DNA from: a virus
Lineage: Duplodnaviria > Heunggongvirae > Uroviricota > Caudoviricetes
DNA length: 7,589 nucleotides
IMG/VR virus record: IMGVR_UViG_2654587571_000012
Coordinates: 1 to 7,589 of that record
Reading direction: 5' to 3' (one strand)
A program made the translations under genes and the position numbers. Under the pieces are notes generated by a model that worked only from the letters and a program-made list of their open reading frames with translations, made no database searches and had not been told where the DNA came from. Shown here one piece after another: positions 166 through 7,003 of the stretch. Position 1 is the first letter of the stretch; every line of letters starts with the position of its first letter.

Positions 166-2428
<2,263 letters not shown>

Positions 2429-2457
<29 letters not shown>

Positions 2458-2938
2458 CGAGTAAATCCGGTAATTTATCCCCTGCCCGCGCACACTGATT
2501 TGCCCCCTTAGCAATAAGGGTTTTCAGATGGTCAAGATGGCGCGGTGTTAAATCAGGAAACTGTCGCTGCATGGATAAAGGGATGGAATCAAGCGTACTG
2601 GATAACGCCATTGCCAGCTTACTGAGGGCAAAAATACAGAACCCGGTGTCAATAAGTTTTCCTTTTGACACCTCATTTTTTAACTGCTGTGTAACAGCCT
2701 GTTCTGCTGTCAGTTCCCATCTGGCAATAAGCAATTTCTCCTCATAGTCGTCTTCGCTATCGCCATCAGGCACATCGTTTTTACTTCTCCTCAGATACGA
2801 TATGTAAAAATCGCGCCAGGCATCCAGATCCAGTTGCCCTCGCTTATTCGATATCGGGGCACCCGGCAATTTCTGCAATCTGCGAAGCTGGCGATCGGTC
2901 AGACTTAAATGCCTGGCAACTTCAGTCTGCGTAGCCAC
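2429..2938 (-). CDS. nu1: Terminase small subunit (Nu1-like)
   Basis: 169 aa with a GTG start at 2938 and GAGG upstream. The C-terminal half resembles lambda Nu1 (FCIFALSKLA..., LDSIPLSMQRQFPDL). The N-terminal DNA-binding region differs from lambda. It overlaps the terminase A start by about 29 nt, as in lambda. Confidence 0.75.
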
Positions 2939-3084: not shown

Positions 3085-3121
3085 GATCCCGGAAAATTTT
3101 CATAAATAGCGAAAACCCGCG

Positions 3122-3133
3122 AGGTCGCCGCCC
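3122..3133 (-). other. cosN: lambda-type 12-nt cohesive end sequence
   Basis: The + strand AGGTCGCCGCCC is the reverse complement of the lambda cohesive end GGGCGGCGACCT. The adjacent ~35 nt (CGCGGGTTTTCGCTATTTATGAAAATTTTCCGG on the minus strand) also match my recollection of the lambda left end. The cosQ side (3135..3170, cgtaacctgtcggatc.ccggaaagg) likewise looks lambda-like. Confidence 0.8.
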
Positions 3134-3340
3134 CGTAACCTGTCGGATCGCCGGAAAGGACCCACGAAAATGATAATAATTATCATCTACATGAGGTTTA
3201 TCACGACATGTGTGTACGCCATCAAACCACGAGAAATAATCAATTATTACGCAGGTATCGTATTAATTGATCTGCATCAAATTAGCGTAAAAGCAACTTC
3301 AGATAATACAAATCAGCAACACTGAATACGGGGCAACATT

Positions 3341-3565
3341 ATGTCATCAAAGAACAGAACCCGCAGAACAACAACCCGCAACATCCGATTTCCAAACCAG
3401 ATAATTGAACAAATTAACATCGCTCTTGACCTAAAAGGTTCAGGTAATTTTTCAGCGTGGGTTATTGAAGCCTGCAGAAGAAGATTAATTAATGAAAAAT
3501 ATTCTCAATTTGTACCCAACAAAGACAAACACGACCAGAGCACCTGTTCAGACAGGTTTACTTAA
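3341..3565 (+). CDS. DUF3950 / YlcI-YnfO-like small protein (cos-proximal moron)
   Basis: 74 aa, MSSKNRTRRTTTRNIRFPNQIIEQINIALDLKGSGNFSAWVIEACRRRL... It occupies the same position and has nearly the same N-terminal sequence as the small ORF at the lambda right end, as I recall it. The upstream DNA (3135..3340) is also lambda-like. Confidence 0.8.
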   Translation: MSSKNRTRRTTTRNIRFPNQIIEQINIALDLKGSGNFSAWVIEACRRRLINEKYSQFVPNKDKHDQSTCSDRFT

Positions 3566-3584
3566 ACGACTTATATATGACACA

Positions 3585-3612
3585 AAAAGCGACCACTAAA
3601 GTCGCTTTTTCT
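3585..3612. terminator. Bidirectional intrinsic terminator between convergent genes
   Basis: Stem AAAAGCGAC (3585..3593), loop cactaaa, stem GTCGCTTTT (3601..3609). It is flanked by an A-run on one side and a T-run on the other, so both transcript orientations end in a hairpin plus U-tract. It sits between the stops of the 3341..3565 and 3647..3961 genes. Confidence 0.6.
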
Positions 3613-3646
3613 TATGGTAACAGGCAATAACTCTCTCAGATATTTT

Positions 3647-3961
3647 TTAGCATTTTTTTGACCGCGCGTTTCCGGACGTATTCTGTTCTCCTGTCCCTTT
3701 ATATCGTCGGAATACCCGCCGCTCTTCAAATCCCATTCCCAACTCAGAATGTAGTCTGTTGACCGCTTGTTTTATTTCGGTCAGGTTCACCGGTGAAACC
3801 GGAGTCCGGCGCGCCTTACGCAAACACTCTGCTCGTTTCTGTGCCGCCACTTTTCTTTTCTGGTCATCACTTAGCTGTACCATCACTTTTGCCCATCGTT
3901 CAGCTGCTCTCCGGTACAGTCCTTTTTTCTCCAGACATTCTGCCACGTGATCATGTAGCAT
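3647..3961 (-). CDS. Small regulator-like protein, possibly ANR (AraC negative regulator) family
   Basis: 104 aa with ATG at 3961 and a strong GGAGGT Shine-Dalgarno 5 nt upstream. The N-terminal ~50 aa (AECLEKKGLYRRAAERWAKVM...RKVAAQKRAECLRKAR) fit my recollection of the ANR helix pair. The C-terminal half is unassigned. Family assignment is from memory only. Confidence 0.6.
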   Translation of the reverse strand: MLHDHVAECLEKKGLYRRAAERWAKVMVQLSDDQKRKVAAQKRAECLRKARRTPVSPVNLTEIKQAVNRLHSELGMGFEERRVFRRYKGTGEQNTSGNARSKKC

Positions 3962-4426
3962 AAGTGACCTCCGATTATCTACAGACTGCCATCCTGAATT
4001 TACCTTCCCTTAATGAAATAACAATAAAAAACAAACCACGCAAAAACAATAAAACAACACACAAAAAAAACTAAATAATAAACAAAAATAATCACCTTAT
4101 TTTATTATTTTTTGAGGGAGCAATTACTGAACAAAAAACGCTGACTATATACTCAAAACCAAACAACTATTCTGCCAATCAGGTATCATGGCAACACACG
4201 GAATTACCGTGTTTTTGCCTTCTCTGCCCATACAATACGGGCATATACTTCATTCTCTATTGTAATATTTCTATCCATGTGCCCCACTCCATTTACCTGT
4301 AAATAATATTCAAAATATTTATCACAGAAATCGTTTTTGGCCATGAACTGAGCACACTATAAAGTCCGGAACTGACTCTTTGTTAAATTACCTTAACGTT
4401 ACCAGTAACACCTTCATAACAAAACA

Positions 4427-4894
4427 TCACGGTATACACTGGGTACGGATATATTCCTGTGCTCCTTCCAGTTGCTTCTGCATTGCCATCAGCCGTTCTC
4501 TGAGGATGAAATAATCCCGTTCAGCGGTGTCTGCCAGTCGGGGGCCGGTTGCATTATCCACGCCGGAGGTGCCGGTGGCTTCACGCACGGTACCGGAGCA
4601 GGTGGCGTTGATCCGCAGGCGCTTACGACCAGCGGCAACATCAGCACGCAGAGTTTCATTTTCAGCTCTCGCATCGGCTAATTCCCTCGAGTATCTGGCA
4701 TCAAGTGCAGCGACATCACGCTGGCGTATCTGCATATCAGTAATTGTCGCGTTCGCCAGCTCCAGCTCACTGGCTTTTTTATCGCGCTGCTCTTTGTAGA
4801 TGATGGCGTGATCACGGTAATGATTCAGCCCCAGACTAAGCGCACCACAGGCCACCAGCAGGACAATGATAACCACGCACAGAACACGGTTCAT
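4427..4894 (-). CDS. Rz: Rz i-spanin
   Basis: Start at the ATG at 4894 (MNRVLCVVIIVLLVACGALSLGLNHYRDHAIIYK...) with GGTGG upstream. Close to lambda Rz throughout from memory (DMQIRQRDVAALDARYSRELADA, ADTAERDYFILRERL, MQKQLEG). N-terminal transmembrane segment present. The 4951 start in the ORF track is a TTG and is not used here. Confidence 0.9.
   Translation of the reverse strand: MNRVLCVVIIVLLVACGALSLGLNHYRDHAIIYKEQRDKKASELELANATITDMQIRQRDVAALDARYSRELADARAENETLRADVAAGRKRLRINATCSGTVREATGTSGVDNATGPRLADTAERDYFILRERLMAMQKQLEGAQEYIRTQCIP
4489..4674 (-). CDS. Rz1: Rz1 o-spanin (lipoprotein embedded in Rz in the +1 frame)
   Basis: 61 aa, MRELKMKLCVLMLPLVVSAC... with a lipobox Cys and a proline-rich mature part (PPAPVPCVKPPAPPAWIMQPAPDWQTPLNGIIS) very like lambda Rz1. 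Entirely nested in Rz. Confidence 0.8.
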   Translation of the reverse strand: MRELKMKLCVLMLPLVVSACGSTPPAPVPCVKPPAPPAWIMQPAPDWQTPLNGIISSSENG

Positions 4895-4895
4895 A

Positions 4896-5009
4896 TCACC
4901 ACCAACGGATTGCCCAGACCAGAACAGCAATGGCCACAATACGAATGGCAAAAGCTGCCGCTCTTGTTAAATCCAGACTGGCTGGCGTCTCCACTTCAAT
5001 GCCTTTCAT
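4896..5009 (-). CDS. Possible 37-aa hydrophobic small protein between endolysin and Rz
   Basis: Translated by hand: ATG at 5009 with GAGG 9 nt upstream, MKGIEVETPASLDLTRAAAFAIRIVAIAVLVWAIRWW, stop TGA at 4896..4898, one nucleotide before the Rz ATG. It is below the ORF-track length cutoff. It could be a frame left open by the Rz ribosome-binding region. Confidence 0.25.
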   Translation of the reverse strand: MKGIEVETPASLDLTRAAAFAIRIVAIAVLVWAIRWW

Positions 5010-5102
5010 AATGGACAACCTCAGAAAGAATCTTTTATACTTCCTCACAGGGAAAGTACCTCCCTACCCATAATTTCTCCCTTGCCTTACTCAAGGTCAG
5101 AA

Positions 5103-5150
5103 AACACAAAACCCCGCTTGCTGCCAACAAACGGGGTTTTTACTTTTATT
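5103..5150. terminator. Bidirectional hairpin terminator inside the lysis cassette (between endolysin and Rz)
   Basis: Stem AACCCCG (5110..5116) and CGGGGTT (5132..5138) around a 15-nt loop. On the + strand it is followed by TTTTTACTTTTATT. On the minus strand it is followed by UUUUGUGUUUUC. Confidence 0.6.
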
Positions 5151-5229
5151 CACTTAGGTTTTACCAGTTTTCAGGATTTCGTGTTATCCACCCGCGTTGG
5201 CCAACGTCATTTTTCAGGAAAATATTCTG

Positions 5230-5763
5230 CTATCTGTCGATGTCCCAGCACGCCAGCGCGCTCTCCTGGTCACGCCGTGAGACCTGACCGTAGCAATTAT
5301 TTGAACGGATACGGCAGTCTCTGCCACCGTCCTTAATCCACCAGCGAATCGCCTCACAGGCACCTTTTCGATCGCCTGCATTAATTCGTTTATAAAACGT
5401 CGACGGGAAGCACTTACCGGGGCCAATGTTGTACGGACAGAATGACGCGATCCCCGCTTTCTGGGGTTCGGTCAGCGGCACCCGGATGTTTTTCTCCACC
5501 CATGCCAGCGCCTTGTCACGTTCGATGGCATTAACCCGGTCGCATTTTTCCTTTGACAGCTTCATGCCAGGAATAACAGGCTTACCATCCACCAGAATGG
5601 CACCACGGCAGATGGTCCAGATCCCCGCACCATCACGGTATGCCGTGGTGTGGTTACCTTCCTTTTCATCCAGAAACTGGTCGAGGATTTCAGGCGCAGA
5701 AGCACCTGCACCAATCAGCGCCAGAACGGCAGCCGACAGGCCGTATTTTATTTTTTCGTTCAT
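5230..5763 (-). CDS. R: SAR-type endolysin (T4-lysozyme fold, signal-anchor-release N-terminus)
   Basis: 177 aa. N-terminal YGLSAAVLALIGAGASAPEIL is a weakly hydrophobic SAR-like segment. It is followed by EGNHTTAYRDGAGIWTICRG, which carries the Glu-Asp-Thr catalytic arrangement of phage 21 R-type lysozymes. It lies downstream of a pinholin. Confidence 0.9.
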   Translation of the reverse strand: MNEKIKYGLSAAVLALIGAGASAPEILDQFLDEKEGNHTTAYRDGAGIWTICRGAILVDGKPVIPGMKLSKEKCDRVNAIERDKALAWVEKNIRVPLTEPQKAGIASFCPYNIGPGKCFPSTFYKRINAGDRKGACEAIRWWIKDGGRDCRIRSNNCYGQVSRRDQESALACWDIDR

Positions 5764-5880
5764 GGGGATTTATCGATTTCTAATCCCTTGATATGTTAGG
5801 TATATAATCCAACACTCATGGTCGCTCTCATAAACATATCCCTTGAGACGCAGCAGATTACAACAAATGAAGCCATATAA

Positions 5881-6195
5881 ATGAACAGTAAAGAAAGTTT
5901 GCGCAGAAGATTTTTACAACTAATGACAGAAAACGTTAAATCAGAGTTACTTCTTCTGATGGCAGATAATAACGAAGCAACAAGCAGCATTCTTGCAGAC
6001 CCTTACGGTAAGATCTCACATAAAACGCTGGATATTATTACCACAACATTAACACCGCTGATGCTTCAACGGCTGAAACATAATATCAACGCATGGGTTA
6101 ATGAAGAATTAAGTCCTCCCTGCTTATGGGATTCTCGTTACGCATGTCAGCAAAAAATGCGAATTTTCAACTTACTATCACCAAAGCTCAGGTAG
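5881..6195 (+). CDS. Hypothetical protein encoded opposite to the lysis genes, between holin and endolysin
   Basis: 104-aa ORF and the only long ORF on either strand in the low-GC 5764..6450 insert. TATATAAT at 5801..5808 lies upstream. A perfect 8-bp inverted repeat AAATCCTG-N14-CAGGATTT (6201..6230) begins 6 nt after the stop. No convincing Shine-Dalgarno and no family recognised. Confidence 0.4.
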   Translation: MNSKESLRRRFLQLMTENVKSELLLLMADNNEATSSILADPYGKISHKTLDIITTTLTPLMLQRLKHNINAWVNEELSPPCLWDSRYACQQKMRIFNLLSPKLR

Positions 6196-6450
6196 CCATA
6201 AAATCCTGCCCTTCATGGCATACAGGATTTCAATGGAATCACAATGACCAACTCTTGCACAGCTGTATCCCTGACTCCCCGACAACTCAGATTTTCAGTA
6301 TCTGCTGCTATCTAAAGAGAAAGCGCACAAATGCAAGGGTCTTTCATCACGTCCTGTTATTGATTGCCTGTGACCTTTTCTTACCTCATGGAACGTTTTT
6401 TCAGTTAGAAATATTCATTTTACAACCAGTTCGTATTGTTTATTCATCGA

Positions 6451-6657
6451 CTACTCTCCCCGCGCCACCTTACGCTTATCTTCTTTAATCTTGAAATAAA
6501 GGTTAGTCAGATACGTCAGCAGGCCAAACAGCAGACTCCCCAGCACACCGATTGCCACCCACTGGGACGGAGAGACTTTGTCCAGCAGCTGCAGTAACCA
6601 GTATCCCGTCCCCACCGCTGACGTGGTGTATGACACACCCGTTGTGATTTTTTCCAT
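6451..6657 (-). CDS. S: Class II pinholin (phage 21 S-like)
   Basis: 68 aa, [68 protein letters not shown]. Two transmembrane segments and a charged C-terminal tail, closely matching S21 as I recall it. GGAGA lies 12 nt upstream of the ATG. Confidence 0.9.
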
Positions 6658-6700
6658 CTGATGTATGTCTCCGTCACCGCCGACAGAAAATGAAAGTAAA

Positions 6701-6737
6701 GAAAAACAAAAAAACCACCAGTGTCACCCACTGACGG
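6701..6737 (-). terminator. Minus-strand-specific intrinsic terminator just upstream of the holin gene
   Basis: In minus-strand RNA, CCGUCAGUG and CACUGGUGG pair as a 9-bp stem with two G-U wobbles around loop GGUGA, followed by UUUUUUUGUUUUUC. On the + strand the same positions are A:C and C:A mismatches, so the structure is strand-specific. Confidence 0.55.
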
Positions 6738-6778
6738 CCAACTCCGGGAGCCGTGATTATGGCATTCAGGCTCTGCTA

Positions 6779-6943
6779 AAAATGCCAGATAACATTCCGG
6801 CCTCCCCTGATTCAGGTTATAAATGACACAATATCTTGACAACACCCGTCACTGTCTGTCAGAAAATATACCGCCAGGCATAAGTATCATGTGAAATCCA
6901 ACTATCCTTCTGAGCCAGCACCTCTCCACCGAAAGTCAGTGCT
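6779..6943 (+). repeat. Copy 2 of the ~165-bp structured element (intact)
   Basis: Direct repeat of 1..165. It carries TTGACA at 6836..6841 and runs into the hairpin terminator at 6913..6956. Its 5' end (6784..6801) can also fold as a short hairpin in minus-strand RNA (GCCGGA/UCUGGC) followed by AUUUUU. Confidence 0.7.
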
Positions 6944-6956
6944 GGCTGTTTTTTTC
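6913..6956 (+). terminator. Plus-strand intrinsic terminator of sRNA-like unit B
   Basis: Perfect 9-bp stem AGCCAGCAC (6913..6921) and GTGCTGGCT (6939..6947) around a 17-nt loop, followed by G and TTTTTTT (6949..6955). The minus-strand reading has no U-tract after the stem. Confidence 0.65.
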
Positions 6957-7003
6957 CTTAATAAAGCATCTGTAACTGAAACAATCCGCATATTGATAAT
7001 ATA

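Follow-up and report, generated by a model that had tools for sequence, protein, structure and literature searches.

A pchA-type regulatory gene at the bor position of a defective lambda-like prophage

The late region and its cos-proximal site

The window, as we call the whole 7,589-nt stretch of DNA analysed here, takes in the late region, encoded on the minus strand, of a lambda-like prophage, in which genes for holin (6451-6657) and lysozyme (5230-5763) are followed by Rz (4427-4951, minus strand; Pfam Phage_lysis, E = 1.2e-48) and by Rz1 (4489-4674), which is embedded in Rz. The Rz protein is 66% identical in amino acid sequence to lambda Rz, and its gene forms the end of the lysis cassette, directly upstream of and on the same strand as the pch cassette described below. 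On the far side of that cassette, the cosN cohesive end of a lambda-like prophage, GGGCGGCGACCT, occurs as a single exact match in the window (3122-3133, minus strand), with 0 matches in 200 shuffles, so that the region under study starts beside cos and has the Rz stop codon (4427) as its other end. Past cos lie Nu1 (2429-2938, minus strand; Pfam Phage_Nu1) and the large-terminase gene, which is interrupted near 1408-1422 by an IS3-family element; none of the complete E. coli genomes in the collection searched contains this junction of IS element and terminase. The gene order is thus S-R-Rz-pch-(DUF3950)-cos-Nu1, and the prophage is defective, its large terminase gene being split by the IS element.

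In the DNA next to cos, 387 nt (3089-3475) share 89% identity with lambda. This lambda-like stretch runs from cos into the first ~45 codons, the 5' two-thirds, of a plus-strand gene for a 74-aa protein of the DUF3950, or YlcI-YnfO, family (3341-3565; Pfam PF13132, E = 1.3e-17; NCBIfam NF041551; phrog_949), to which RefSeq gives the name YlcI/YnfO family protein. The gene product and the lambda ORF are 89% identical over residues 1-53 (53 aa), as expected from the original prediction, which had called both the gene and its upstream DNA lambda-like; the gene is convergent with pch, and its C-terminal ~25 codons lie outside the lambda-like DNA. Beyond this point a blastn comparison with lambda gave no match between 3475 and 4449, the position inside Rz at which lambda homology returns, at 83% identity.

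The corresponding stretch of lambda contains lambdap79, a putative envelope protein and bor. When lambda proteins were compared with the window by tblastn, Bor and lambdap79 found nothing (for Bor, none at E ≤ 10) and lambdap78 found noise only, and 3100-4460 held no lipobox ORF and no lipobox-like signal peptide. The block at 3476-4448 (minus strand), which lacks a lambda counterpart and occupies the position of lambdap79, lambdap78 and bor, therefore bears out the view of this region as a cos-proximal moron site in which bor has been replaced. The insertion site is the same as in lambda, extending from Rz to the DUF3950-bearing DNA with flanks that are 83-89% identical, but the cargo is wholly different, and pch is co-oriented with the late operon, whereas lambda bor is opposed to it.

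A PerC-family gene identical to pchA

The replacing block carries, on the minus strand and in the orientation of the late lysis genes, a gene for a 104-aa PerC-family transcriptional regulator of the pchA type (3647-3961). A minus-strand gene of this size with a strong ribosome-binding site had been predicted, and the Shine-Dalgarno sequence GGAGG is indeed found at 3968-3972 (minus strand), six nt upstream of the ATG. The protein matches the Pfam PerC family (PF06069) with E = 3.8e-44 and 149.3 bits against a cutoff of 22.6, residues 1-89 aligning with model positions 1-89 of 90. It contains all twelve residues of the PerC core (D4, A7, L10, E11, G14, R17, R18, A19, A20, R22, W23 and C46); in an alignment of 70 representatives of the family, A19 and W23 never vary and each of the remaining ten is conserved to at least 90%.

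Within this family the protein is 100% identical to PchA (ECs_1091) from prophage Sp4 of E. coli O157:H7 Sakai and differs at one position from PchB (Sp11) and at two from PchC (Sp14); outside Pch, even the nearest representatives in the library reach only 40-57% identity over the stretches that match. The likeness extends to the DNA, since the window and the Sakai pchA locus differ at 2 of 890 nt across spacer, CDS and terminator, and window positions 3484-6978 are 99.5% identical to the Sp4 pchA-lysis block. Identical loci are annotated in RefSeq as 'PerC family transcriptional regulator', and the exact sequence is entered in UniRef as 'PchABC family transcriptional regulator'. Judged by its sequence, the gene is pchA: its length, its near-identity and its lambdoid-prophage site downstream of Rz and near cos are those of the group 1 Pch proteins (PchA/B/C). 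The pchABC genes, PerC homologues carried by lambdoid prophages, are needed if the LEE is to be fully expressed (PMC4456613, PMC6265319), and in view of its complete identity to PchA the window protein would be an activator of LEE1/ler. We conclude with high confidence that 3476-4448 is a pch moron cassette of a lambda-like prophage, set between the lysis genes and cos and carrying the PchA gene together with its probable AT-rich control region. The pch cassette is already known and the locus is well studied.

The arrangement recurs in Sakai, where PchA, PchB and PchC (Sp4, Sp11 and Sp14) resemble the window in their Shine-Dalgarno sequence, their terminator and the placement of pch after Rz, and the window spacer is essentially the 465-nt spacer of pchA (1183680-1184144 in Sakai). 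The order Nu1-pch-Rz is that of Sp11 and Sp14 and is also found in E. albertii, and the pch-Rz arrangement is present in Sp4 as well. In Sp4, however, the pchA block is inverted and abuts IS629, whereas in the window the late region is uninverted and retains an intact DUF3950 gene, cos and Nu1, and a different IS element splits the large terminase gene. Of 5,426 complete E. coli genomes, 673 contain a 242-nt block from upstream of pch (median, 3 copies per genome); in 642 of 688 records its identity is 99% or more. Among the carriers listed are O157, O145, O121, O111, O103 and O55:H7 strains, which we take to be LEE-positive serotypes. The founder of PF06069, PerC of EPEC (pEAF plasmid), has the family and the core AE-LE--GLYRRAA-RW...C in common with the window protein, but it is plasmid-borne, in the perABC operon, whereas Pch is a stand-alone prophage moron; both PerC and Pch activate LEE1/ler (PMC4456613, PMC11773190).

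Resemblance to ANR proteins

The original prediction likened the N-terminus of the 104-aa protein to ANR-type small regulators, which act on AraC-family activators by binding them, and found its C-terminal extension untypical of that family. On this reading, the protein would be an ANR-type anti-activator of AraC-family regulators and also of H-NS. ANR proteins have been described as three conserved alpha-helices with a signature of seven highly conserved residues, A10, E14, A22, W26, A29, W43 and R47 (PMC4983702). The AlphaFold model of the window protein (pLDDT 83.9) likewise predicts three helices in the N-terminal 50 aa (5-13, 16-29 and 33-50; pLDDT ≥ 95), and the NCBIfam ANR model (NF033650) aligns with residues 7-47 at model positions 9-49 of 54 (E = 0.046). 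At 13.6 bits against a cutoff of 32 this alignment is sub-threshold, so ANR membership fails, whereas true ANR proteins (Aar and its relatives, used as positive controls) scored 47-66 bits on the same model without a PerC match. The original prediction had itself staked the ANR reading on a significant match in such a profile search, and the search gave none. Nor did BLASTP find a match between PchA and Aar, and hhalign comparison of PchA/PerC with ANR returned probabilities of 0.6-2% (P = 0.024 with a wider ANR alignment).

The resemblance of the N-terminal half nevertheless recurs across the PerC family. An exhaustive HMMER search for the family yielded 82 representatives, 76 of which were aligned; all 76 match PerC, and 56 of these diverse proteins match the ANR model at E ≤ 0.01, colinearly and over nearly the whole model. 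HMM, hhalign and an ungapped identity scan agree on one ungapped register (PchA i = Aar i+7), in which the signature residues A, E, A and W match, a C is shared as well, and R is aligned with K (R in the PerC consensus); the remaining two of the seven are unmatched, A29 and W43 being replaced by V26 and V38. The N-terminal likeness to ANR proteins pointed out in the original prediction is present in the window protein only below threshold, and it recurs as weak colinear matches in the family at large. A LEE-repressing PerC-like PICI protein also bears on the ANR reading, as the authors who described it in 2025 saw ANR matches below the PerC ones and suspected it to be ANR-like (PMC11773190).

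Several other properties separate PchA from ANR proteins. With 104 aa, an estimated ~12 kDa, it is larger than the <10 kDa of an ANR protein, and the C-terminal ~50 aa, formerly regarded as an atypical extension, turned out to be the ordinary second half of the PerC domain, in which the AlphaFold model places a fourth helix (60-73) followed by a disordered basic tail of 30 aa. No AraC-family gene was recognised among the identified genes of the window; in Sakai Sp4, ECs_1087 is annotated as an AraC-family regulator. The identical protein PchA has been shown experimentally to activate the LEE, an output opposite to that of ANR proteins, and H-NS could not be co-precipitated with it (PMC4764244). 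What Pch shares with ANR proteins such as Aar of EAEC 042 is that both are small helical proteins, gained by horizontal transfer, which modulate H-NS-linked virulence regulons, with a predicted three-helix N-terminal module, common A/E/A/W/C positions and a weak, colinear profile similarity that is below the family cutoff and not reciprocal. We consider it very unlikely that the protein is an ANR-type anti-activator; it is a full-length PerC-family protein, and the earlier notion of a host-regulation moron stands insofar as the prophage carries a regulator of host genes, though not one of the ANR type. A weaker relationship can still be entertained, namely a possible distant homology between the ANR anti-activators and the TPR-like module that the three N-terminal helices of PerC/Pch form. 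This is a tentative proposal to which we give less than even chances: the many weak, colinear, same-register profile matches, which lack reciprocal significance, make remote homology of PerC and ANR possible but unproven.

The upstream DNA and the control of pchA

To analyse the surroundings of the gene we aligned seven pch loci: pchA, pchB, pchC, two divergent E. coli variants, the E. albertii locus and, from outside a phage context, a homologue of 78% identity. The Shine-Dalgarno sequence is invariant in all seven. Upstream of it lies a candidate sigma-70 promoter (3997-4024, minus strand), with a -35 element TTGTTA (4019-4024), a 16-nt spacer and a -10 element TAAATT (3997-4002), which agrees with the consensus at 8 of 12 positions; the motifs ATTGTT and GGTAAA(T/C)T are kept in pchA, pchB, pchC, A25 and E. 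albertii, and the -10 element is absent from the 78%-identity homologue. Downstream of the gene, a bidirectional intrinsic-terminator hairpin, AAAAAGCGAC...GTCGCTTTTT (3584-3610), is common to the convergent pch and DUF3950 genes; it can form on either strand, with -12.3 and -14.7 kcal/mol and z about -2.8 in both cases, and is invariant in six pch loci. SOS induction raises the expression of group 1 pch genes (PMC6265319), and the co-orientation of pch with S-R-Rz, together with this terminator after pch, fits that response.

Translation of pchA is known to be masked by pairing of a CDS segment with the ribosome-binding site (anti-SD), which the sRNA DicF unmasks at low oxygen (PMC7873438, PMC7769764). 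As the window sequence is identical to pchA, the anti-SD and DicF sites mapped in pchA apply here too. In our duplex calculations, a tentative candidate for the masking segment, which contains ACUCCGG and could pair with the ribosome-binding site, lies at 3794-3822 (minus strand); the best duplex between ribosome-binding site and CDS has -20.2 kcal/mol, a marginal value equalled by 3.3% of shuffles. A targeted calculation likewise gave a marginal candidate DicF site at 3856-3882 (p about 0.05).

Between Rz and pch we found a putative 46-aa ORF (4204-4344, minus strand), which matches phrog_2157, of unknown function, over its full length, has no Pfam or NCBIfam match and is not annotated by RefSeq; in the locus alignment it is still open in pchC, where it has 7 nonsynonymous changes against 1 synonymous. 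The same spacer contains an extended hairpin, GGCAA..ACACGG-loop-CCGTGT..TTGCC (4188-4218), which is terminator-like on the plus strand and folds with -17.5 kcal/mol on the minus strand (z = -3.1). No minus-strand terminator was predicted in the 465-nt spacer.

The A/C-rich low-complexity tract that had been noticed upstream of the gene, in a block of ~35% GC, was confirmed. It spans 4015-4100, 54-139 nt upstream of the pch ATG, and consists of A57 C16 G2 T11, that is, 85% A+C (T/G-rich in the pch sense), with 21% GC in surroundings of 29-37% GC. No other 90 nt of the 7.6-kb window have as high an A+C content, or as strong a strand skew, as those beginning at 4007, with a fraction of 0.856 against a mean of 0.527 (sd 0.071), about 4.6 sd above it. 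Among the paralogues pchA, pchB and pchC the tract is the most variable block, in which T-richness is kept and the sequence drifts; conserved instead are the distal spacer (4204-4430) and the proximal ATTGTT...GGTAAAyT...CTGTAGATAA-GGAGGT-ATG block. Retention of composition under drifting sequence argues for an AT-rich promoter or regulatory region rather than a base-pairing RNA element. We thus regard the tract, from its sequence, as a probable promoter-upstream regulatory region of the AT-rich kind to which H-NS and activators, LrhA among them, bind, and do not think that it is a coding or base-pairing element; its divergence between pchA and pchB fits the reported differential control of these genes by LrhA. 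It could instead sit within a ~200-nt 5' UTR starting from a promoter-like site at 4194-4166. Intrinsic curvature was rejected as a property of the tract, as its A-tracts are not helically phased (spacing 15.5, 8.5, 14 and 19.5 nt), and so was a structured long leader, whose 261-nt fold does not surpass shuffles (z = 0.26).

We also considered that the tract and the hairpin downstream of it encode a C/A-rich plus-strand sRNA (~4115-4220), antisense to the Rz-pch spacer and acting as a GcvB-type sponge like AgvB, or that the G/U-rich pch leader is itself a base-pairing target. A plus-strand promoter-like site (4079-4108) and a hairpin followed by a T-run (4196-4212) would suit such an RNA, which folds with a 3' stem-loop (-21.1 kcal/mol, z = -1.8), and prophage anti-sRNAs with a CACAACA seed are known in EHEC (PMC4104026). 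The T-run, however, lies partly within the extended stem. Substitutions in the hairpin give no consistent covariation on either strand, since that in A25 preserves pairing on the plus strand only, that in pchB on the minus strand only, and that in pchC breaks both. The candidate has no Rfam family at E ≤ 1, and among the EcOnc candidates (EcOnc01-64) no Hfq-CRAC peak falls in the pchA or pchC spacers, whereas prophage anti-sRNAs of the AgvB/AsxR type are short RNAs marked by such a peak and by a conserved 3' region, and are located at the P_R' moron site, unlike the tract. The exact CACAACA is absent from the tract, its C/A motifs are lost in pchB, and its drift speaks against a seed function. 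We therefore rejected an AgvB-like sponge, found a plus-strand sRNA with its end at the 4196-4212 hairpin to be unsupported, and consider any such base-pairing role extremely unlikely; the tract is better read as promoter-upstream DNA.

On the reading of the locus as a pchA cassette, the published biology of Pch suggests how it would work. Pch disrupts the H-NS/StpA/Hha silencing complex, whereby LEE1/ler becomes active; the AT-rich sites that it binds lie mostly inside H-NS-bound regions, and it has no recognisable DNA-binding domain (PMC4764244). Transcription of pch responds to LrhA, to butyrate via Lrp and to NtrC-sigmaS (PMC4456613, PMC13012123, PMC10714755). In EHEC and EPEC, the published sites of Pch binding are AT-rich sequences at LEE1 and at further virulence loci, and the disruption of H-NS/StpA/Hha silencing there turns on ler and, via Ler, the type III secretion system. 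The strong Shine-Dalgarno sequence of pch would be held off by CDS-RBS pairing until DicF acts at low oxygen, and the T-rich tract, immediately upstream of the conserved core promoter and Shine-Dalgarno block, would serve as regulatory DNA. Because pch runs in the direction of S, R and Rz, with no predicted minus-strand terminator before it, induction of the prophage may be expected to let transcription of the late operon read through and raise pch expression too, consistent with the SOS response of the group 1 pch genes, although the prophage is defective and both Q and P_R' are located beyond the window.

As pchA is a master switch for attaching-and-effacing virulence, naming the gene correctly flags a LEE activator on a prophage fragment crippled by an IS insertion and assigns the adjoining AT-rich stretch to the pchA control region. 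The window locus leaves the current understanding of this system unchanged. Mildly new are that no part of the pchA/B/C loci drifts faster than the tract, in line with the differences reported in their regulation, and that the N-terminal module of PerC bears a faint but consistent resemblance to ANR proteins. If this resemblance reflects common descent, Pch and ANR proteins would form separate branches of a single superfamily whose members are small helical modulators; at least part of the relief of H-NS silencing by Pch might then come from protein-protein contacts of this module, the extra helix and basic tail would supply DNA affinity, and the relationship would also account for the repression of the LEE by some PerC-like proteins.

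Interrupted terminase gene and second EcOnc35 copy

The large terminase gene is interrupted by an IS3-family element (window 174-1422), whose ORFs lie at 1040-1387 and 174-920 (-) and within which Rfam places isrC at 1233-1355 (150 bits). Since the terminase gene is truncated by this element, the prophage in the window cannot package. A search of 5,426 complete E. coli genomes found the IS-terminase junction in none of them, and the matches in these genomes begin at window position 1422. Just past the holin gene (6451-6657, minus strand), window 6865-6938 (+) is 100% identical to EcOnc35 of the Sakai prophage Sp4 (1186583-1186656) and is followed by GCCAGCAC...GTGCTGGCTGTTTTTTT. Published Hfq-CRAC work lists EcOnc35 as a candidate sRNA, and it has a Rho-independent terminator. 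Positions 57-165, the left end of the window on the far side of the IS element, are a direct copy (88%) of the EcOnc35 region at 6835-6943, which points to a join, mediated by the IS element, between this prophage and a second lambdoid one.

Gene order and additional ORFs in the late region

The window has an uninverted pchA-Rz-R-S-EcOnc35 arrangement, unlike Sakai Sp4 (L006), in which this block is inverted as a whole and pchA adjoins IS629. In window coordinates, the inversion sites map to 3376-3484 and 6978, with one breakpoint within the DUF3950 gene. The distal conserved half of the Rz-pch spacer holds a 46-aa ORF (4204-4344, minus strand) that lacks a RefSeq annotation and matches phrog_2157 over its full length; its counterpart at pchC, the Sakai Sp14 paralogue, remains open, with mostly nonsynonymous substitutions. 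A plus-strand ORF at 5881-6195, between the lysozyme and holin genes and antisense to the late operon, has a phrog_1853 match (E=3.5e-47) and is represented in RefSeq by a hypothetical gene of 273 nt; this ORF may represent a further moron.

A PchA homologue, partial Pch matches and the spacer hairpin in O121:H19

A PerC-family gene encoding a 104-aa protein with 78% identity to PchA (loci L010 and L011) resides outside any Rz-cos context, where it adjoins an EspG-family ORF and IS elements, and the AT-rich upstream DNA that it has in common with the pch loci extends for only ~150-170 nt. Three very long proteins, P0054 (7,614 aa), P0088 (768 aa) and P0114 (976 aa), have segments that match Pch residues ~21-80, in P0054 and P0088 several times over; the three may represent repeat proteins, or the similarity may be one of low complexity, and all were left out of the alignments.

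At the O121:H19 pch locus (L003), the counterpart of the hairpin at 4188-4218 has additional T's, so that the pch-sense strand reads CCGTGTTTTTGCC. Judged by these extra T's, the O121:H19 spacer hairpin would be terminator-like in the direction of the late transcript, and could shield pch from read-through in that lineage.
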